From Gammaproteobacteria bacterium (GTDB taxonomy: Bacteria; Pseudomonadota; Gammaproteobacteria; Eutrophobiales; Eutrophobiaceae): DNA of 64,000 nt. A program made the position numbers and the translations under genes. The stretch is taken from the NCBI GenBank assembly GCA_965215365.1, contig CBDCDS010000003.1:768001-832000 (forward strand), in the 5' to 3' direction. This document shows, piece by piece, positions 25,616-39,709 of this stretch. How positions within the stretch are numbered: position 1 is the stretch's first letter; the number at the start of each line of letters is the position of its first letter. The notes beneath the pieces are model-generated. The model worked only from the letters and a program-made list of their open reading frames with translations, was not told the DNA's origin and ran no database searches.

Positions 25616-26806
25616 CTATCCGGCAACTATTGTCTCAATACCCTGTTGCCAGGGCATAACCTGAATGGGCCCGAGCGAATATTTGTGGGCAGCCTGACAC
25701 AGACATATTTGCTTTGCCGCCTCATTCTCCGCTGCAAACGCGCTGAGCCCCTTCAAATCAGACTCCCTTGGCGCCGGTTGGGATTTGATTTCAATCGCCA
25801 CAGGCGCATCCTGCAGGCCGCGCGTCAACACCAAATCGACCTCCATGCCGCTGTTGGTGCGCCAGTAATGGAAACGGTAACCCGCTTCGTTATAGTCATT
25901 GGCCCTGATTAACTCGTTCACAACAAACGTCTCAAACAGCCTTCCATAACGATAACTGCCGGGCCTTAATTCCGTCCGCAACTCTCCTCTGATGGCGTTC
26001 AGTACGCCGCAGTCAAAGAAGTAGTACTTCGGGCTTTGGCGCAACTGTTTGCGTACCGAACGGCTCCAGCCGTCAATGCGGAAAACAATCAGGGTATCGA
26101 CTAGGATGTCAAAATACTCCTGCGCGGTTTTCACGCTGACACCGCTGTCCCGGGCAATGGCTGAATAATTCACAGGTTCGCCGTTGACCTGCCCGGCCAA
26201 ATCCAGCAAGCGCATGAACTGAGCAACCTTGCGCACCAGTAATTCCTGCATGACCTCTTCCCTGAGATAGGTTTCCACATAGGCTTTCAGTGAGCGGCTG
26301 GCGGCAGCAAAACTTTCCTGGTAAAACCCTGGCAAAGTGCCAACAGTCAGCGCCTTGTGCAGGTCCGGCCCCACCTCCTGCACACTGAGCGGGTGTAACT
26401 TCAGCGTCCAGGCCCGCCCAGCCAGAAGATTGGCCCCGGAACGTTTCAACTTCCTGGCGCTGGAACCCGTTAACAGGAACTGGACCCTGCCTTGATGGCA
26501 CTCAATGAAGTAATGCACCTCATCCAGCAACGCCGGCATCTTCTGCACTTCGTCAACCAGCACCATCAACATGTCCGCAGCCGGAATATCCCGAAGCCGT
26601 TGCTCAAGCTCAAGGCGAAACAATCCAGGCTCAGCGCTATAACGCCTGCAGGTTTCCAAGCTTAACAAGTCAACACTCACAGCATACCGCGCCCGCCCCA
26701 ACCAACCCTGCGCCAACACAGTCTTGCCCACCCCCCTGGGCCCAAACAGAAAAGCCGACTTGTTATGCTTCAGCAGTTCGGCAAGATTCAGTTTCCTCTG
26801 GTACAT
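25616..26806 (-). CDS. AAA_14 ATPase with DUF4143 domain
   Basis: GPRGVGKT, LVDEVQK, LTGSSARKL, LLAGRA, PKYYFFDCG, YWRT..G.EVDLV, AIEIK. Confidence 0.9.
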   Translation of the reverse strand: MYQRKLNLAELLKHNKSAFLFGPRGVGKTVLAQGWLGRARYAVSVDLLSLETCRRYSAEPGLFRLELEQRLRDIPAADMLMVLVDEVQKMPALLDEVHYFIECHQGRVQFLLTGSSARKLKRSGANLLAGRAWTLKLHPLSVQEVGPDLHKALTVGTLPGFYQESFAAASRSLKAYVETYLREEVMQELLVRKVAQFMRLLDLAGQVNGEPVNYSAIARDSGVSVKTAQEYFDILVDTLIVFRIDGWSRSVRKQLRQSPKYYFFDCGVLNAIRGELRTELRPGSYRYGRLFETFVVNELIRANDYNEAGYRFHYWRTNSGMEVDLVLTRGLQDAPVAIEIKSQPAPRESDLKGLSAFAAENEAAKQICLCQAAHKYSLGPIQVMPWQQGIETIVAG

Positions 26807-27793: not shown

Positions 27794-28129
27794 GTGAAAA
27801 TCGATTTTCAGAACCGAAAACTTGAGAAAATATTTAATTCGACGGGAGATCTTCAAAAGCAATACGGGAAACGTATGGCGAGAACTATCATGAGACGCCT
27901 TGCTGTTCTAAAAGCTGCCGGTTCACTGGCATTGGTGCCAACAACTCCCCCTGAGAGGAGGCACCAGCTGGGGAGTGATCGAAAGGGGCAATACGCTGTC
28001 GATCTTATTCATCCGTACCGGCTGATTTTCAAACCGAACCACGAGCCTGTTCTGAGAAAGCAAGACGGTGGGATAGACACGGAACAAGTAACCGCAATCA
28101 CAATCATTGAAATAGTTGACTATCACTGA
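27794..28129 (+). CDS. higB: HigB/RelE-like toxin (killer protein family)
   Basis: M.I.F...KL.K.......L.K.YG, R.HQL..DRKGQYAVDL.HPYRLIF.P, I.I.EIVDYH. Confidence 0.88.
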   Translation: MKIDFQNRKLEKIFNSTGDLQKQYGKRMARTIMRRLAVLKAAGSLALVPTTPPERRHQLGSDRKGQYAVDLIHPYRLIFKPNHEPVLRKQDGGIDTEQVTAITIIEIVDYH

Positions 28130-28143
28130 CCGGAGATAGAGAT

Positions 28144-29229
28144 ATGCTGACGGCAACCAATCAATACACACCGGACTATACAGTGTCGCCGGGTGAGATC
28201 CTGAATGAGCGCATCGTCGCGCAAGGAATCTCGCAAGCCGAACTTGCCCGGCGTTGTGGTCACTCTGCAAAACTGATCAGCGAAATCATTAACGGTAAAG
28301 CACCGCTCAATCCACGTCTGGCACTGGAGTTTGAGAAGGTACTGAGTGTTGACGCCAGTATCTGGCTCAATATAGAAACGGATTACAGATTGTATATGGC
28401 CCGTAAAGCAGAAGCACGCGAAGCAGTTGATGCTGCCGCTTGGCTGGAGCAATTTCCGATAAGGGAACTTGTAAAGCGGGGAATTTTTGATAAACCGGAG
28501 TCGGATACAGATAAGATGTCAAAACTGCTTTCGTTCTTTGGAGTAGCTTCGATTAAGGCGTGGAGCATGAAGTATGGATTGGCTAATGTAGTTTATCGGC
28601 ACTCGCGGAGATTCGAGAGTGATCAGGCTGCTTTAGCAACATGGCTTCGACTTGGAGAGCTGGACGCTGAAGGACAGGAGTGTGTTGATTACAACGAGAC
28701 AAAGTTCAAGCGCTCGCTCAAGAAAATCCGGAGACAGACGCGTGCACCAATAGAAGATGCACTAATGCAGGCAATGCATCTCTGTAATGAGGCAGGAGTC
28801 GCGCTTACTCTTGTTAAACCATTACCTAAAATTGCACTTAGTGGCGCCGCCTGGTGGCTTTCCCCTAAAAAAGCTATGATACAACTCAGCGCGCGCCATA
28901 AGACAGATGACCACCTCTGGTTCAGCCTGTTCCACGAAGCGGCTCACCTTCTCCTCCACAGTAAAAAGACCATTTTCACAGACTCCAGAAATGGTGGGAG
29001 TACAGAGATCGAAGTAGAAGCAGACAACTGGGCATCAAATAAACTCATTCCACGTTCGAACTGGAATCGTTTTATCGCGACTTCTCTGTTCAGCAAGACA
29101 GCAATTCAATCTTTTGCGGAGGAACAAGGTATTGCCCCTGGCATAGTTGTGGGTGCGCTTCAACATGAAGGATATATTCCCTGGTCTCATATGAATGGTT
29201 TGAAGGTACGACTGGAATGGAAGCAATAA
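28144..29229 (+). CDS. higA: HigA antitoxin fused to an ImmA/IrrE metallopeptidase domain
   Basis: PGEIL.E...SQAELARR..EII.GKA HTH; WFSLFHEAAHLLLH (HExxH), E.EAD.WA. Confidence 0.9.
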   Translation: MLTATNQYTPDYTVSPGEILNERIVAQGISQAELARRCGHSAKLISEIINGKAPLNPRLALEFEKVLSVDASIWLNIETDYRLYMARKAEAREAVDAAAWLEQFPIRELVKRGIFDKPESDTDKMSKLLSFFGVASIKAWSMKYGLANVVYRHSRRFESDQAALATWLRLGELDAEGQECVDYNETKFKRSLKKIRRQTRAPIEDALMQAMHLCNEAGVALTLVKPLPKIALSGAAWWLSPKKAMIQLSARHKTDDHLWFSLFHEAAHLLLHSKKTIFTDSRNGGSTEIEVEADNWASNKLIPRSNWNRFIATSLFSKTAIQSFAEEQGIAPGIVVGALQHEGYIPWSHMNGLKVRLEWKQ

Positions 29230-34213: not shown

Positions 34214-35581
34214 ATGAACCTTGCCGAACGTAAACTTATTGACTTGCAGTCTTATATCGCCTTGCTGGAACAGCACAACCACTTGGTACGTGTAAAAAGT
34301 GAGGTGGACCCCGTGTTCGAACTGGCCGGTATCGCCAAACAATTTGAGGGCGGCAAGGCGCTGCTGTTCGAAAATGTCAAGGGCAGTGACTTCCCGGCGC
34401 TGACCGGGTTGTACTGGAACCGTAATTTCATGGCGAAGTTTTTTCAGACTACCAGCGTCAGGCTGCCCTTCGTGCTGGCTGATGATATCCGGGCCTGGCG
34501 CAAGCACCCCATTGAACCCGTGATAGTACAACAAGGGCCGGCCAATGAGGTGGTTGAGACCGATCCTGACTTGCATACCCTGCCAATTCCCCACCACGCC
34601 GAAGGCGACGGCGGGCGCTACCTGACTTCTAGCGTGGTCATCGCCAAGGACCCGGACACGGGAGTGCGCAACCTGTCCATTCACCGCATGATGGTCACCG
34701 GCAAAAACCGCTGCACCCTGTTACTGGAAGAACTGGGCCACCTGATGGACTACTTCAAACGGGCCGAAGCCAGGGGGCAAGCGCTGGAGCTCACCGTCAA
34801 CAACGGCGCCGATTATGCCCTGACCATGGCCGCAGCATCACCCGCCTCCGCTGCGCCCATGGACTTGGATGAGATCGGCATCGCCTGTCAGATGCACGGC
34901 GCGCCGGTGCGCTTGATTGAAGCCCAAACCGTGGCCGTAGAGGCCTGGGCCGACGCGCAGTTCGTCATAGAAGGGAGAATACTCCCCAATGTAAGAGAGC
35001 CGGAAGGCCCCTACGCCGAGGTCACCGGCTACTACGCCGCCATGGCTCCACGCTGGGTGTTTGAGGTGACCGCCATCACCCGGCGGCGGGAACCGATCTT
35101 CCATTCCATCCTGTCCGGCAAGGAGGTGTATAACGCCTATGGCCTCAGCGCCGGCGCCGGCGCGTTCGACAAGATCCATAGTCTGGTGCCGGAGGTGACC
35201 GCGGTGCACTTCTCCGACGGCAGTGTGCCCTACCATCTGGTCGTGCAGATAGACAAGAAACACGAAGGCAGCCAGCGCAACGCCATCATGGCCGCGTTTG
35301 TCTCCCTGGCGTTCGTAAAAACTGTCACCGTGGTGGACACGGATGTGGATATCTACAGCCTCGCCGATGTGGACTGGGCCGTGCAGACTCGCTGCCGCTT
35401 CGATAAGGACCTGCTGCCGATACCCGACGGCATCGGCCATCGCCTCAACCCCATGGTGGAAGACGACAAATGGACGCGCCTGGGCATTGACGCCACTGTG
35501 CCGTTGCCGCGGCAGGACAAGTACCACCGAGCCACCATGTGCGCGGTGAACCTGGACGATTTTGATATGGAAGGGGCGTGA
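34214..35581 (+). CDS. UbiD family prFMN-dependent decarboxylase
   Basis: LFENVKG, DGGRY, N.SIHR, EPEGPYAE.TGYY, VVD.DVDI, WA..TR, GIDAT.P. Confidence 0.9.
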   Translation: MNLAERKLIDLQSYIALLEQHNHLVRVKSEVDPVFELAGIAKQFEGGKALLFENVKGSDFPALTGLYWNRNFMAKFFQTTSVRLPFVLADDIRAWRKHPIEPVIVQQGPANEVVETDPDLHTLPIPHHAEGDGGRYLTSSVVIAKDPDTGVRNLSIHRMMVTGKNRCTLLLEELGHLMDYFKRAEARGQALELTVNNGADYALTMAAASPASAAPMDLDEIGIACQMHGAPVRLIEAQTVAVEAWADAQFVIEGRILPNVREPEGPYAEVTGYYAAMAPRWVFEVTAITRRREPIFHSILSGKEVYNAYGLSAGAGAFDKIHSLVPEVTAVHFSDGSVPYHLVVQIDKKHEGSQRNAIMAAFVSLAFVKTVTVVDTDVDIYSLADVDWAVQTRCRFDKDLLPIPDGIGHRLNPMVEDDKWTRLGIDATVPLPRQDKYHRATMCAVNLDDFDMEGA

Positions 35582-35707
35582 GATTTGAACTGCGATACGG
35601 TTGCAATACGTCGCGTAGGCCGCCATGTCATCTAGCTCCGGGAAGCTTCGCGAATTCATGCGAGTTGAGGAGCTCGAACTCGATAATTGGGTCAGTGAAT
35701 AAAAGAA

Positions 35708-36976
35708 ATGATTGCTAGGGGTGTTTTCGTTGTTGTTCTTTTGGTTGTCAATGGCGCTCAGGGTCATCCCGGGCGAACCGATGCGGACGGTTGTCACGCC
35801 GGCGCTGAGTCCTATCACTGTCATGATGAAATTATTGAATCCGGTGGTGGAAATATGAATATGTTTGCCGATGCTTTGGTCGATCCTGTTACACTGGTTG
35901 TTGCTTTTTTCATTGTAGTTTTGTTCGTTATCGGGTTGTTTTGGCAGCCGTTGCGAGAATCTGCGCCTGGGTTGCTGACCTCGTTGGGTATATTTGGCAC
36001 CTTCTTGGGAACGTTTATAGCCCTGTCTGGCTTTGATCCGTCCAGTGATATGAGCGATAGCGTCAATAATTTGCTTGGTGGGATGAAAATTGCTTTCGCT
36101 ACCAGTTTGCTCGGGATATTGGCCTCGATTGTTTTTAAGGTAATTGCTTCATTTCGGTTCAAGGAAGATGAACTGACTGAGAGTGAAGCGGTGTATCCGA
36201 TGGAAACGGTGCGTTTGCTCAACGAGATTAAGGAACATCTGGCGGTGACAAATTCAGGGCAACTGGAGTCGATTCGCAAGGCGTTGGTGGGGGATGAAAC
36301 CGAATACACCTTGTTGGGTCAGCATGCGCATGAACTTAAATGGCTTGAAAGCATAGAAGGGATGATGGCAAATACGCGGGATCTAATCGGTCAGGAAGGT
36401 GATCGGGGGGTACATAATCTGATTTTTGAATTGGCTGAGATGCGGTGGGCTTTAATTGGCGTTGAGCGAAGCAGTAAAAATTCGGATGAAGATGCTGGCT
36501 ACAATATTTATGACGTGTTGGAAAAGTTGGTTAAGAGTCAAAGTGAGTTGCTGGAAAAAACCGATACCCGGTTAGATAATCAAAGTAAGTTTATTGATAA
36601 TCAGGGTAAGTTGGTTGAGTCATTGACTGAACTCAGGCGGTGGCTTATTGAAAGCCAGCATCAATACACCGATGCGTTAGATAAAATTGCTTTGCAGTCT
36701 AATCAAGAGGATTCTGTTGACACCCGAGTTAAGTCCGTCGATCTTTTGAATGAAATCAGGCGGGTTAATTTGTTGTTGTCTAAATTTGACGCTAAAAAAA
36801 TTAATTCTTTAGTTGAGTCGGTTGATAAACTTATCCATCTTCAAAGTTCAGCTCATCAGCCGAAGAAAGGTGGTGCGACGTTAGAGGATATGCGGAATAT
36901 TATCAAAGAGCAATTGGCGCAAGTGGGTCAAACAACAGGTAATAAACAGAACGGCGGGAATGAAAAAAAAGACTGA
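35708..36976 (+). CDS. ZorA-like (MotA/ExbB fold) protein with N-terminal signal peptide and YHYH motif
   Basis: APGLLTSLGIFGTFLG and LLGGMKIAFATSLLG match type II ZorA TM2/TM3; long helical tail; HPGRTDADGCH...YHCH at the N-terminus. Confidence 0.78.
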   Translation: MIARGVFVVVLLVVNGAQGHPGRTDADGCHAGAESYHCHDEIIESGGGNMNMFADALVDPVTLVVAFFIVVLFVIGLFWQPLRESAPGLLTSLGIFGTFLGTFIALSGFDPSSDMSDSVNNLLGGMKIAFATSLLGILASIVFKVIASFRFKEDELTESEAVYPMETVRLLNEIKEHLAVTNSGQLESIRKALVGDETEYTLLGQHAHELKWLESIEGMMANTRDLIGQEGDRGVHNLIFELAEMRWALIGVERSSKNSDEDAGYNIYDVLEKLVKSQSELLEKTDTRLDNQSKFIDNQGKLVESLTELRRWLIESQHQYTDALDKIALQSNQEDSVDTRVKSVDLLNEIRRVNLLLSKFDAKKINSLVESVDKLIHLQSSAHQPKKGGATLEDMRNIIKEQLAQVGQTTGNKQNGGNEKKD

Positions 36977-37622
36977 TGAGCAATGGGCGCCGGTGTCGGA
37001 TTTAATGGCCGTCCTAATGTTAATTTTCATGTTTATATCGTTGTTGACAGTGCGGCATGTGATCGATGAGCGAGAAATCAATGAGTTGGAATGTAATAAG
37101 ATTTATGATTCTTTGGTGGCTGAATTCGATCAGGATTTTGAAAAATGGGATATTGCTTTGTTAGACGACCTGACGATTCGTTTTAATAACCCGGAATTGC
37201 TGTTCAAATCGAATGAAAGTCGTATCAGCCCCCGTTTTGCAATCATTCTACAGGACTTTTTCCCGCGTTATCTGGCGGTTATCCTGCAAGATAAATACCG
37301 CTCTGATATTCGTAAAATACGGATAGAGGGTCATACGTCGTCGGAATGGAAGGACGCAGTGAATGAAAAAGATGCTTATTTTTTGAATATGCAACTTTCA
37401 CAAGCTCGTACCTGGAATATCCTGCGCTACATTATGACATTGCCGACCAGTGTGTATTATTTTGATTGGGCTAAAAAATATGTCAGTGCAGACGGGATGT
37501 CATCGAGTGATCCGATTTTAACCAGTGATGGGATTGAAAATAAAGAACGTTCGCGGCGGGTTGATTTTCGTCTTATTACCACATCGTGCCGGAGGGCCGG
37601 AGTCTATGAGCAATCTATCTGA
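36960..37622 (+). CDS. ZorB-like (MotB/OmpA) protein, type II Zorya-like
   Basis: W..VSDLMAVLM.IFMFIS, IL.DFFPRYL, IRIEGHTSSEW, AYF.NM.LSQ.RT, SRRV.F. Confidence 0.88.
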   Translation: MKKKTDEQWAPVSDLMAVLMLIFMFISLLTVRHVIDEREINELECNKIYDSLVAEFDQDFEKWDIALLDDLTIRFNNPELLFKSNESRISPRFAIILQDFFPRYLAVILQDKYRSDIRKIRIEGHTSSEWKDAVNEKDAYFLNMQLSQARTWNILRYIMTLPTSVYYFDWAKKYVSADGMSSSDPILTSDGIENKERSRRVDFRLITTSCRRAGVYEQSI

Positions 37623-38226
37623 TAATTCTAATGAAGGGCTGTCTGTTATGCTGCCTTATCAGCTTATTATTGTGCCGGTCTTGCTTGTTGCTATCCTGCC
37701 AATGCCCTACGGTTATTACACGCTAGTCAGATTGATATGTTGCGCCCTGTTTGTCGATTTAACGGTTCGGCTTTTGGTTAATACTGATAATTCTAAATTG
37801 GGTGGTTGGAGTTTTCTTTGGTTTTTGACGGCGTTTTGTGCAATTTTATACAATCCCTTTATTCCGGTTCATTTGACCAAAGAAATCTGGACGGTGACCA
37901 ACCTTGTCTCTTTGGGTATTGGTGGGGGTGCGGTTTATCTGTTAAGTCGGTTGTCCAAGCCAAAGAAAAAAACCGGAAAAGGAAAAGAACAGTATGCCAC
38001 CGATAAGTTGAAAAAAGCCGATGGTAATTCAATGGCAAAGCAGAAATCAGAGTTAGTGAAAAAGGGGGCGGTTAAGGCACAGCCGGATGTTGAAAACGGC
38101 GAGAAACAGAGCAAAATTAAACAGTGGGCGGCGAGGGCTAATCCGGGGGCTAGATCGGATTACGGGCAATATAGAAAGGACGGGCCGAGGGCTAAGACCA
38201 AGCAGGCTAAGCAACGCCCTTTTTAG
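37606..38226 (+). CDS. DUF6804-like membrane protein with a basic, low-complexity C-terminal tail
   Basis: LPMPYGYYTLVR, AILYNPFIPVHL.KE.W; overlaps the zorB end. Confidence 0.7.
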   Translation: MSNLSDNSNEGLSVMLPYQLIIVPVLLVAILPMPYGYYTLVRLICCALFVDLTVRLLVNTDNSKLGGWSFLWFLTAFCAILYNPFIPVHLTKEIWTVTNLVSLGIGGGAVYLLSRLSKPKKKTGKGKEQYATDKLKKADGNSMAKQKSELVKKGAVKAQPDVENGEKQSKIKQWAARANPGARSDYGQYRKDGPRAKTKQAKQRPF

Positions 38227-38249
38227 CCAAAGACGCATGGCATTAGCTT

Positions 38250-38780
38250 TTGTTGAGAGAATCAGATTTGGACAAAAGTACTGATAATGAAACTTCGACC
38301 GATCGTCCCATTGTATATATGGAGACGACAGTGGTGAGCTACCTGACCGCCAGGCCGAGTCGCGATGTGGTCATAGCAGGACATCAGCAATCAACCCGGG
38401 AATGGTGGGAAGACAGACAAAGCGATTTCAGGGTTGTTGCATCACCACTTGTATTGCAAGAGGCAAGTAGAGGAGACAATCAGGCAGCGCAATCCAGGCT
38501 GGATATTTTAAGGATTGTGGAGTTATTGGAGATCAATGATGACGCAACGACCTTGGCGCGTGAGTTGATAGAAAGCGGAATAATTCCTGAAACTTCGCTT
38601 GATGACGCTTTACATGTCGCTATCGCTGCCGTTAATGGATGTAACTATCTGGCTACTTGGAACTACCGTCATCTGGTCAGCGCTGGGGTGCGGGCGCGAA
38701 TCGAGACATTTTGTCGAGACAAAGGCTATGAAGCGGTGATAATCTGCACACCAGAGGACCTTTTGGAGGAAGCAACATGA
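38250..38780 (+). CDS. PIN-domain (VapC-like) toxin; exact start uncertain
   Basis: VY.ETTVVSYLTARPSRD, TREWW, DALHVAIA, L.TWN..HL, ICTPE.L. Confidence 0.88.
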   Translation: MLRESDLDKSTDNETSTDRPIVYMETTVVSYLTARPSRDVVIAGHQQSTREWWEDRQSDFRVVASPLVLQEASRGDNQAAQSRLDILRIVELLEINDDATTLARELIESGIIPETSLDDALHVAIAAVNGCNYLATWNYRHLVSAGVRARIETFCRDKGYEAVIICTPEDLLEEAT

Positions 38781-38944
38781 AGAACGACCCTATTGTGGAA
38801 GAAGTACGTAGAATCAGAGATGAACATGCGGCAAGATTCAAATACGATTTGGACTTGATAGTGAAAGACCTCAAAGAGCAGGAACGGGCAAGCGGCCGGA
38901 CGTATATCAGGCTGCCACCGCGTCGTATTAAACCGAAATCATGA
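38777..38944 (+). CDS. Small putative antitoxin (55 aa; not in the ORF track)
   Basis: GGAGG RBS, ATGA overlap; MKNDPIVEEVRRIRDEHAARFKYDLDLIVKDLK resembles typical partners of this PIN family. Confidence 0.8.
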   Translation: MKNDPIVEEVRRIRDEHAARFKYDLDLIVKDLKEQERASGRTYIRLPPRRIKPKS

Positions 38945-38995
38945 AGGAATAGGGCGTTTGTCAGATCGGGCGCCTTGAAAATCAATCATCGAAGT

Positions 38996-39709
38996 TTAGT
39001 CTGCGGATTTATCCTGCTCAATCTTTTTCTTCAACTCCTCCATTTCCTCGTCCACCTTGTGCAGGTGGTCGAGCAGGGCGTCGAGGGTGTTTTGTACCGG
39101 GTCGGGCATGTCTTTGCTGCCGCCGTAGGCGTCGAAGCCGATTTTTCTGGCCATGGCGGCGCGCTGGGCTTTTTTCAATTCCTCCTCGGCGCCGGACTCC
39201 CGAGCCATGATGCGGCCGGGGATGCCGACTACGGTGGCGTGGTCGGGGACATCCTTGATAACCACTGCGTTAGAGCCAATCCTGGCGTTGGCACCTAGGG
39301 TGATGGGGCCTAAGACCTTGGCGCCGGCGCCGATGATGACGCCGTTTTTCAGGGTCGGGTGGCGTTTGCCTTTCTGCCAGGTGGTGCCGCCTAAGGTGAC
39401 ACCGTGGTAGATGGAGCAGTCATCGCCGATCTCCGAAGTCTCACCGATGACGATGCCCATGCCGTGGTCGATAAACAGGCGGCGGCCGATGCCGGCGCCG
39501 GGGTGAATCTCCACACCGGTGAGAAAGCGCGACAGGTGCGAGCTGAGGCGCGCAAGCAGATAGAGTTTCTTGTTCCACAGCCAGTGGTTCACGCGATGCA
39601 GCAGGATCGCATGCAGGCCGGGGCAGGTGAGCAGGGTTTCCAGCGCGCTGCGGGCGGCGGGGTCGCGCTCGAACACTACTTGTATGTCTTCTTTGAGGGT
39701 GTTGAACAT
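38996..39709 (-). CDS. cysE: Serine O-acetyltransferase
   Basis: [40 protein letters not shown]. Confidence 0.96.

Follow-up and report, generated by a model that had tools for sequence, protein, structure and literature searches.

A putative ZorE-less derivative of a type II Zorya locus with a DUF6804 membrane protein in the zorE slot and a YHYH-type segment fused in frame to zorA

Zorya is understood to work through a motor in the membrane to which a soluble nuclease is recruited, and in its type II form the motor genes zorA and zorB are encoded together with zorE, which specifies an HNH nickase. PADLOC and DefenseFinder assign a locus to type II only where zorA, zorB, and zorE are all present. 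Here, we describe a Zorya-like locus with a different third gene in the genome of a gammaproteobacterium (GenBank assembly GCA_965215365.1), within a stretch of 64,000 nucleotides (nt) of contig CBDCDS010000003.1 (positions 768,001 to 832,000 of the forward strand; hereafter the window, whose numbering is used throughout). Three overlapping open reading frames (ORFs) on the + strand, which an earlier reading of this DNA (the original prediction) had placed in a lower-GC patch at 35708-38226, are present there, with a GC content of 0.40-0.51 across 35500-39000, compared with 0.58-0.67 in most flanking 500-nt bins. They encode a ZorA with an added N-terminal stub (ORF1), a ZorB (ORF2), and, in the zorE slot, a membrane protein of the DUF6804 family (ORF3). 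The arrangement is confined to one island lineage, comprising this genome, one sister species (G006, locus L012), whose copy of the island also adjoins cysE-valS and is 92-95% identical in nucleotides, and a few metagenome proteins. From sequence comparison, we favor with moderate confidence the interpretation that the locus is a one-lineage, ZorE-less derivative of Zorya II that is still under selection and whose output is not ZorE.

The motor genes derive from the type II family. ORF2 (36960-37622, +; 220 aa) is, on its sequence, an unambiguous type II ZorB: it matches the PADLOC ZorB2 profile with 248 bits over residues 2-209 and Pfam OmpA with 32.2 bits (cut-off 27.2), and its translation holds all of the motifs quoted in the original prediction, namely VSDLM (containing D14), DFFPRYL, IEGHTS, and SRRV. 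The protein has both the transmembrane (TM) helix with the conserved Asp, D14, and the OmpA-like peptidoglycan-binding domain of a Zorya II ZorB. ORF1 (35708-36976, +; 422 aa), which overlaps ORF2 by 17 nt, contains zorA proper at 35855-36976 (+), with a three-TM MotA/ExbB-type core at residues ∼58-152 and a long helical cytoplasmic tail at residues ∼160-422, as in the ZorA of Zorya II. It matches PADLOC ZorA2 with 89 bits, over residues 59-205 only, and Pfam MotA_ExbB with 23.9 bits (cut-off 22.9). Because the scores against the NCBIfam equivalog models fall far under their cut-offs (56 against 700 for ZorA2; 159 against 400 for ZorB2), we regard the two proteins as divergent members of their families.

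Consistent with the motor motifs and helical tail that had been read in ORF1, it retains all six invariant columns of the TM core in a ZorA alignment of 55 sequences, along with the invariant tail columns W312 and Q317. In an AlphaFold2 model built with the same alignment, the TM core (residues ∼50-150) has a pLDDT of 88-98, and the tail (residues 165-421) is entirely helical; its confidence is low to moderate, as would be expected when a single chain of a pentameric bundle is modeled. Residues 16-40 form a low-confidence coil. The tail is acidic (net charge -11), shortened, and divergent, with the proximal conserved motifs present. The MotA_ExbB and OmpA matches, together with the stator architecture of a peptidoglycan-anchored proton channel, are features that the pair has in common with the 5:2 motors MotAB, ExbBD, and TolQR, as described in a study of the Zorya motor (PMC11946911). 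It differs from these motors in its long helical tail of the ZorA type, in the absence of a flagellar or Ton/Tol context, and in that the ZorA2 and ZorB2 profiles score far above the MotB models.

We then come to the effector gene. Within the island, no protein was matched by the ZorE models and no zorE remnant was detected by tblastn (best E value, 1.9); in the genome, which is 97.6% complete, no ZorE was found with either the ZorE protein from a sister species (G005) or PADLOC PDLC00645 as the query. The third gene thus does not encode ZorE, in line with the lack of an HNH motif noted in the original prediction, and because the ZorE HNH nickase that Zorya II encodes with zorAB is missing, the locus is not a member of Zorya type II. 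It is nevertheless like Zorya II in its ZorB2 with the TM Asp and OmpA-like domain, in the three-TM core and helical tail of its ZorA, in the overlap of zorA with zorB, and in a third gene that starts from the same zorB-overlapping ATG; it differs in having a DUF6804 membrane protein as the product of that third gene in place of the nickase. The natural PADLOC bin for such a locus would be the relaxed '[system]_other' class, for which two co-localized genes suffice according to the description of that tool (PMC8565338).

ORF3 runs to 38226 (+) from either a GTG at 37525 or an ATG at 37606, overlapping zorB by 98 nt or 17 nt, respectively. Its membrane domain matches DUF6804 (PF20619) with 61.2 bits (cut-off 27), and it contains the invariant PMPYGYYT signature common to 19 other DUF6804 members, as well as the family's NP...W signature and hydrophobic layout. 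The closest entries in Protein Atlas are DUF6804 clusters only, with scores of 0.83-0.86, below the lead level of 0.9, and a literature search found no paper mentioning DUF6804. While typical DUF6804 proteins have 92-135 aa and stand alone in varied contexts, ORF3 begins with a lead-in of 14 residues that comes from the zorB overlap and ends in a unique tail of 91 residues, which is lineage specific, Lys-rich (net charge, +17), and absent in all 18 other DUF6804 proteins aligned. This tail, which is probably cytoplasmic, and the membrane domain agree with the DUF6804-like membrane protein that had been proposed for the third gene.

ORF3 sits exactly in the zorE slot. Its ATG at 37606 is the same zorB-overlapping 'TATG' at which zorE begins in G005 and in a second genome of the genus, G007, and it has the strongest match to the anti-Shine-Dalgarno (anti-SD) sequence in the island (-10.0 kcal/mol; all duplex energies were calculated with a generic anti-SD motif). 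This ATG is the start shared by the two island copies, since the internal Met15 of ORF3 is Ile in G006. DUF6804 occurs in 2 of the 23 genomes of the genus, each time in this island. A foreign DUF6804 protein has replaced zorE at its coupled start codon.

To gauge constraint on these genes, we compared the copy in this genome with that of G006, both of which lack zorE, by Nei-Gojobori counts. For zorB, the ratio of nonsynonymous to synonymous rates (dN/dS) was 0.07 (31 synonymous and 9 nonsynonymous changes), as tight as that of cysE, a flanking core gene taken as the control (0.11); under neutral decay, synonymous and nonsynonymous changes would be expected in about the opposite proportion. 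ORF3 is constrained throughout, its unusual tail included (dN/dS, 0.24 for the membrane part and 0.28 for the Lys-rich tail), and ZorA gave 0.29 for its TM part and 0.22 for its distal tail. The N-terminal stub of ORF1 (2 synonymous and 2 nonsynonymous changes) offers no statistical power. Taken with the zorE start site and the strong SD match of ORF3, these low ratios suggest that zorAB has been maintained by selection after the loss of zorE, and that ORF3 probably has been, too.

We infer that ZorA and ZorB probably still assemble the usual peptidoglycan-anchored, proton-driven 5:2 motor, which may be coupled to ORF3 and may act against phages. With the motor kept by selection in the absence of ZorE, its output could not be the ZorE nickase, and the most likely partner would be the co-translated ORF3. 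A more elaborate form of this idea, which we consider quite unlikely, is an active ZorE-less Zorya in which the motor signals to the polycationic DUF6804 protein, whose +17 tail would meet either the acidic ZorA tail or incoming nucleic acid, while an exported Zn-binding YHYH head on ZorA serves as an added sensor or wall-acting module.

The strongest competing explanation is a decaying remnant, in which zorE was lost, zorAB is functionless, ORF3 and a downstream PIN-like gene pair are unrelated cargo, and the N-terminal fusion on ZorA is a rearrangement scar. We hold this to be rather unlikely, yet a number of observations speak for it and weigh against a ZorE-less system under selection. First, the closest ZorB relatives found, namely those of G005 and G007 (same genus; 57% identity) and of G352 (54% identity), all belong to canonical zorA-zorB-zorE loci, so that ZorE is carried by 3/3 loci with a ZorB at 54-57% identity; moreover, the third genes of the relatives that were scanned are PADLOC ZorE in 5/5 cases (145-480 bits). 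Second, a published study of Zorya reports that every Zorya gene is needed for defense (PMC11946911), and another reports that Zorya II needs ZorE (PMC11890865); because of these reports, the ZorE-less pair may do nothing. Third, the ZorA tail, which is shorter than in Zorya II, lacks the conserved family blocks DFN..EQFG.NFK.LN and AFP.I as well as the distal blocks, whereas the ZorA tails of the five scanned relatives match ZorA2 profiles along their length.

Further points on the same side come from the pattern of substitution and from the island itself. Part of the ZorA tail evolves fast: residues 161-284 (36188-36559) have a dN/dS of ∼3.3 (1 synonymous and 12 nonsynonymous changes), which differs from the rest of zorA at a Fisher p value of 0.0075 under a post hoc segmentation and which could be relaxation or diversifying selection. 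All of the selection estimates, moreover, rest on one sequence pair. In G006, an IS256-family transposase gene (Transposase_mut, 236 bits; L012 3658-4911, -) interrupts zorA, and the two island copies differ by indels in the stretch from ORF3 to the PIN-like gene. The island is in flux in this genome as well, where vapBC has been deleted and the left edge is a rearrangement joint. Upstream of ORF1, a scan for promoter consensus sequences detected no likely site on the + strand, and the deletions may have removed the native promoter; the scan is weak evidence, however, as read-through from the upstream ubiD-like gene is possible. Lastly, DUF6804 is not otherwise linked to ZorAB. Of the 38 DUF6804 loci that a search of 185,579 species genomes yielded, only L012 has ZorA or ZorB within 6 kb, and the other 37 have neither; the DUF6804 neighbors (116 neighboring ORFs) are heterogeneous and include Hsp70/DnaJ/GrpE/TerB, Sel1, DUF805, phage MuF and Rha, GmrSD, and MazF.

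Against decay stand the tight constraint on zorB, the constraint on ORF3, and the placement of ORF3 at the zorE start site with its strong SD match. In addition, all of the ORFs are intact in this genome, and ZorA alone is intact in three further metagenome proteins. The original prediction had named the finding of zorE in all homologous loci, with this arrangement being unique, as the mark of a decayed island; this is, taken literally, largely what we found, while selection on zorB and ORF3 argues against simple decay. The synteny of a YHYH-bearing ZorA, ZorB, and DUF6804 for which it had suggested searching does exist, but in a single island lineage and in none of the 37 other DUF6804 loci. 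Its broader proposal of a variant or repurposed Zorya-like system is consistent with the type II-derived ZorAB that lacks ZorE, the DUF6804 protein in the zorE slot, and the signs of selection; it is weakened by the restriction to one lineage and by the presence of zorE beside the nearest zorAB genes.

Apart from a former Zorya II, the pair could be one of many ZorE-less ZorAB-like stator pairs that energize some other, non-defensive envelope process, with ORF3 being incidental. In a sample of 400 genomes of the class, ZorB matches (E ≤ 1e-25) were found in 16 other genomes, at 18 loci in all; a ZorE detectable by tblastn within the 1.5-kb flanks was present in 11/18 and absent in 7/18 (L067, L068, L069, L070, L072, L076, and L077). 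The seven ZorE-less loci have ZorBs of 36-45% identity, mostly short ZorAs (277-413 aa), and no recurring third gene. As an observation in its own right, the gene following the pair in L069 (168 aa) likewise ends in a Lys-rich tail. Our locus resembles these partial or orphan pairs in being a two-gene module without a known effector. It differs in that the orphan pairs are less closely related, that their third gene is a different one or missing, and that none has DUF6804, a PIN-like gene, or YHYH, whereas the nearest kin of the present pair is complete Zorya II. Together with a ZorB that is clearly of the ZorB2 type, and with surrounding toxin-antitoxin-like genes and insertion sequence (IS) elements typical of defense or accessory islands, this makes a non-defense role improbable in our estimation. 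A literature search on orphan or ZorE-less ZorAB found no paper on the topic.

The second departure from Zorya II lies at the N terminus of ORF1, where a signal peptide and a YHYH motif have been added. Residues 1-39 consist of MIARGVFVVVLLVVNGAQG followed by HPGRTDADGCHAGAESYHCH. The former (35708-35764, +) is signal-peptide-like, with a hydrophobic segment at residues 1-19 in a Kyte-Doolittle window scan. The latter (residues 17-39; 35756-35824, +) matches NF033223 (YHYH_alt; cut-off 30) with 26.3 bits in a whole-protein scan and with 30.6 bits, at 35756-35824, in a six-frame scan of the genome. The signal-peptide-like start and the His/Cys motif are therefore present in frame before TM1, as first described, and the conserved residues H20, D25, H30, H37, and H39 stand after MIARGVFVVVLLVVNGAQG, reproducing the layout, seen in 19/19 native paralogs, in which a His triad plus Asp, the predicted Zn site of YHYH (PMC7824862), stands behind a signal peptide.

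The source of this segment is the genus itself. Across 12 other genomes of the genus, the YHYH segment matches many separate open frames (138-234 aa), up to six in any one genome. Among 21 native YHYH loci examined, of which 2 had no match to the motif regular expression (regex), all 19 with the motif encode a hydrophobic leader ending in QG, followed by HPGRTD..GCH and an invariant HCH; the native proteins are secreted and have ∼180-215 aa. ORF1 shares with the NF033223 proteins the signal peptide, the QG, the pattern HPGRTD.DGCH......YHCH, and the conserved His and Asp residues, but it retains only the 25-residue motif, with ZorA in place of the C-terminal ∼130 residues. The YHYH core has a host-like GC content of 0.62, compared with 0.46 for the leader, 0.37 for the linker, and 0.43 for zorA, and it is 77% identical in amino acids to the native genes of sister species (84% in nucleotides over 45 nt). 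Given this GC content, the identity to native genes, and the shared layout, the segment is a graft from the gene pool of the genus, that is, a 39-codon piece of a native secreted YHYH-protein gene joined in frame to a foreign zorA. Neither this genome nor G006 has a further YHYH gene above the cut-off, and the C-terminal remainder of a native YHYH protein was not found elsewhere in the window (next best E value, 1.5). We rejected an insertion of the island into a YHYH gene at this site because of the rearrangement joint on its left and the lack of a second YHYH gene in both genomes.

By all searches made, the fusion appears unique among ZorA proteins. An exhaustive HMMER search of 1.84 billion representatives returned 2221 hits (E ≤ 1e-3), and among the best 150 of these, residues 12-49 are covered by P0001 alone (91% identity), which belongs to the same cluster; for each of the other 149, the best-matching stretch starts no earlier than query residue 38 and maps to target residues ∼1-50. 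The YHYH regex matched 1 of 159 proteins collected, and a word-based search with residues 1-60 against proteins of 232-739 aa returned only P0001 from nine candidates. The ZorAs of G005, G007, and G352 (421-433 aa) have the N terminus M-[TS]-E-[VI]-I-Y and no YHYH.

Comparison with such N termini bears on where the graft ends and where translation begins. The junction (35822-35863, +) contains two candidate internal starts, ATG 35855 (M50) and ATG 35861 (M52), after GGTGGTGGAAAT. In an alignment of N termini, the start Met of ten ZorA homologs falls on codon 39, which reads CAT (His) in the window but CCT (Pro) in G006; the residues HDEIIE pair with MTEVIY and MSEIIY and are followed by a six-residue insertion (SGGGNM) before NMFADA. 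On this alignment, the graft seems to replace the zorA start codon and everything upstream of it. Alternatively, zorA began at M50, with the graft ∼10 codons upstream of it and the three-codon similarity due to chance. A related candidate, in which the linker before M50 is a plain 5' untranslated region of zorA with an SD-like GGTGGTGGAAAT, was set back by the alignment of codons 39-44 with canonical ZorA starts.

For the start codon, the upstream ATG of ORF1 at 35708 has only a weak anti-SD duplex, placed far upstream (-3.1 kcal/mol), whereas M50 has a better one (-6.4 kcal/mol; 5-nt spacer), with zorB's own start at -5.5 kcal/mol. Public gene calls for six cluster members are evenly divided, three beginning at MFAD and three at the upstream ATG. 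Translation from MNMFAD, which would leave the YHYH segment outside ZorA and which the original prediction had itself raised as an objection, is accordingly favored by the SD match at M50 and disfavored by the alignment of codons 39-44. For this genome, we lean slightly against the stub being translated as part of ZorA.

The sister lineage provides a second view of the graft. In G006 and in the metagenome proteins P0001, P0161, and P0163, all three of which have an intact ZorA, the N terminus reads MIVNGAQG...YHCP: the hydrophobic core of the signal peptide is gone through an in-frame deletion of 33 nt, and the invariant last His is lost (P39). In that lineage, the YHYH module could hardly work as an exported metal site. 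A search of metagenome contigs with ORF1 and P0163 as queries gave no confirmed relative of the island.

These data bear on the model first proposed for the locus, in which ZorA carries an exported YHYH module as a metal-binding sensor in the periplasm, with either the DUF6804 protein or the PIN nuclease as the effector. Several features fit it. ZorA is described as having three TM helices and a cytoplasmic tail (PMC11946911), from which it follows that its N terminus faces the periplasm; the fusion is topologically coherent with this, and the module would face the cell wall. In this genome, the reading frame runs through the fusion, and neither the signal peptide nor any of the conserved His, Asp, and Cys residues of the YHYH segment has been lost. 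In the one pertinent paper that a literature search on YHYH brought up, it is described as a predicted Zn-binding, possibly peptidoglycan-acting domain of phage tails (PMC7824862), and ORF3 occupies the zorE slot under selection. Periplasmic add-ons on ZorA-like stators seem to occur elsewhere, too: P0075 (201 aa) and P0079 (157 aa) are ZorA-like cores with a signal peptide and a ComEA-like helix-hairpin-helix of the periplasmic DNA-binding type.

The sensor model is opposed by the restriction of the fusion to one cluster, by the loss of the signal-peptide core and the invariant last His in a sister lineage whose ZorA is intact, by the poor SD match at the upstream ATG as compared with M50, and by the retention of only 25 YHYH residues without the rest of a native ∼180-215-aa protein. 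Moreover, none of the 18 other ZorB loci sampled has a relative of DUF6804 or of the PIN-like gene. We therefore view the model as a whole as very unlikely, and a sensor role for the stub, taken by itself, as equally improbable. Because M50 can serve as the start of ZorA, and because both the export signal and an invariant His are gone from the graft in the sister lineage, the graft is probably dispensable, although its intact residues, its frame, and its topological fit in this genome speak against dispensability. Our ratings of the four readings considered here, that is, a selected ZorE-less derivative, a remnant, the sensor model, and a non-defense stator, overlap in part.

Downstream of ORF3, a PIN-like gene (38250-38780, +; an alternative start at ATG 38319 would give 153 aa) matches Pfam PIN marginally, with 24.3-24.6 bits against a cut-off of 23.6, and its stop overlaps by 4 nt with a 55-codon ORF (38777-38944, +). 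Both are strongly conserved between the two island copies (dN/dS, 0.14 and 0.05, respectively), and the small ORF has an anti-SD duplex of -9.3 kcal/mol. For the PIN toxin-antitoxin pair said to follow the motor genes, the signs are mixed: the PIN match is just above its cut-off and a conserved small ORF adjoins it, but this ORF lies downstream rather than upstream of the PIN-like gene and matched no family, antitoxin families included. The pair is more likely to be an independent toxin-antitoxin-like module. Separately, a 74-nt stretch outside the window (G000:C3:500473-500546) is 77% identical to part of the PIN-like gene, and the module may have a paralog elsewhere in the genome. In the sister island, ∼350 extra bases separate ORF3 from the PIN-like gene and include a 76-codon ORF (38197-38265 in the window corresponds to L012 6664-7008), and the C terminus of ORF3 is different and longer.

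The low-GC patch beside cysE-valS is a small foreign accessory island. It is flanked by a UbiD-family gene (34214-35581; Pfam UbiD, 191 bits) and by cysE/valS, which are encoded on the opposite strand. In 12/12 genomes of the genus that have both the ubiD-like gene and cysE on one contig, the two are >240 kb apart, and in the other 10 they are on different contigs; since they are not neighbors in other genomes of the genus, the left edge of the island in the window is a rearrangement or deletion joint. In G006, an intact vapBC lies directly upstream (L012 2103-2797; VapC, Pfam PIN 57.6 bits), with an IS21 IstB helper gene further left (L012 803-1552, +). A blastn comparison of the window with L012 shows that the left edge (35584-35707, +) holds only remnants of vapB and vapC (PIN), at 35584-35632 and 35651-35707, the paired segments being 35584-35632 with L012 2220-2267 and 35651-35714 with L012 2746-2809; the 3' end of vapC, which encodes a C terminus ending in MRVEELELDNWVSE, terminates 6 nt ahead of the ORF1 ATG. 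The 49-nt element at the left edge (35584-35632) is also found in two copies in G006 and in one copy in G020, ∼2 kb from cysE (90-98% identity), and may be a repeat or recombination site.

Other features of accessory type were noted at a distance. A second patch of lower GC content (0.48) at 27794-29229 contains a HigB-like ORF (20.6 bits, under the cut-off) followed by a gene for a 361-aa protein with HTH_3 and Peptidase_M78 domains (ImmA/IrrE-like), and the two look like a toxin-antitoxin-like or mobile-element regulator pair. A gene for an AAA_14 plus DUF4143 ATPase lies at 25616-26806 (-). In G005, a 396-aa ORF with a P-loop-like motif at its beginning adjoins the canonical Zorya II locus (L051 8767-9957).

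As the evidence comes from one island lineage only, the general importance of the locus is modest. If the favored reading is correct, a ZorAB pair selected without ZorE would suggest that the Zorya motor can be wired to a non-nuclease output, and that the periplasmic N terminus of ZorA can take add-on modules. If the locus is inert, the island would instead serve as a worked example of defense-island remodeling through effector loss, replacement at a coupled start codon, in-frame grafting of a host gene, and IS insertion.

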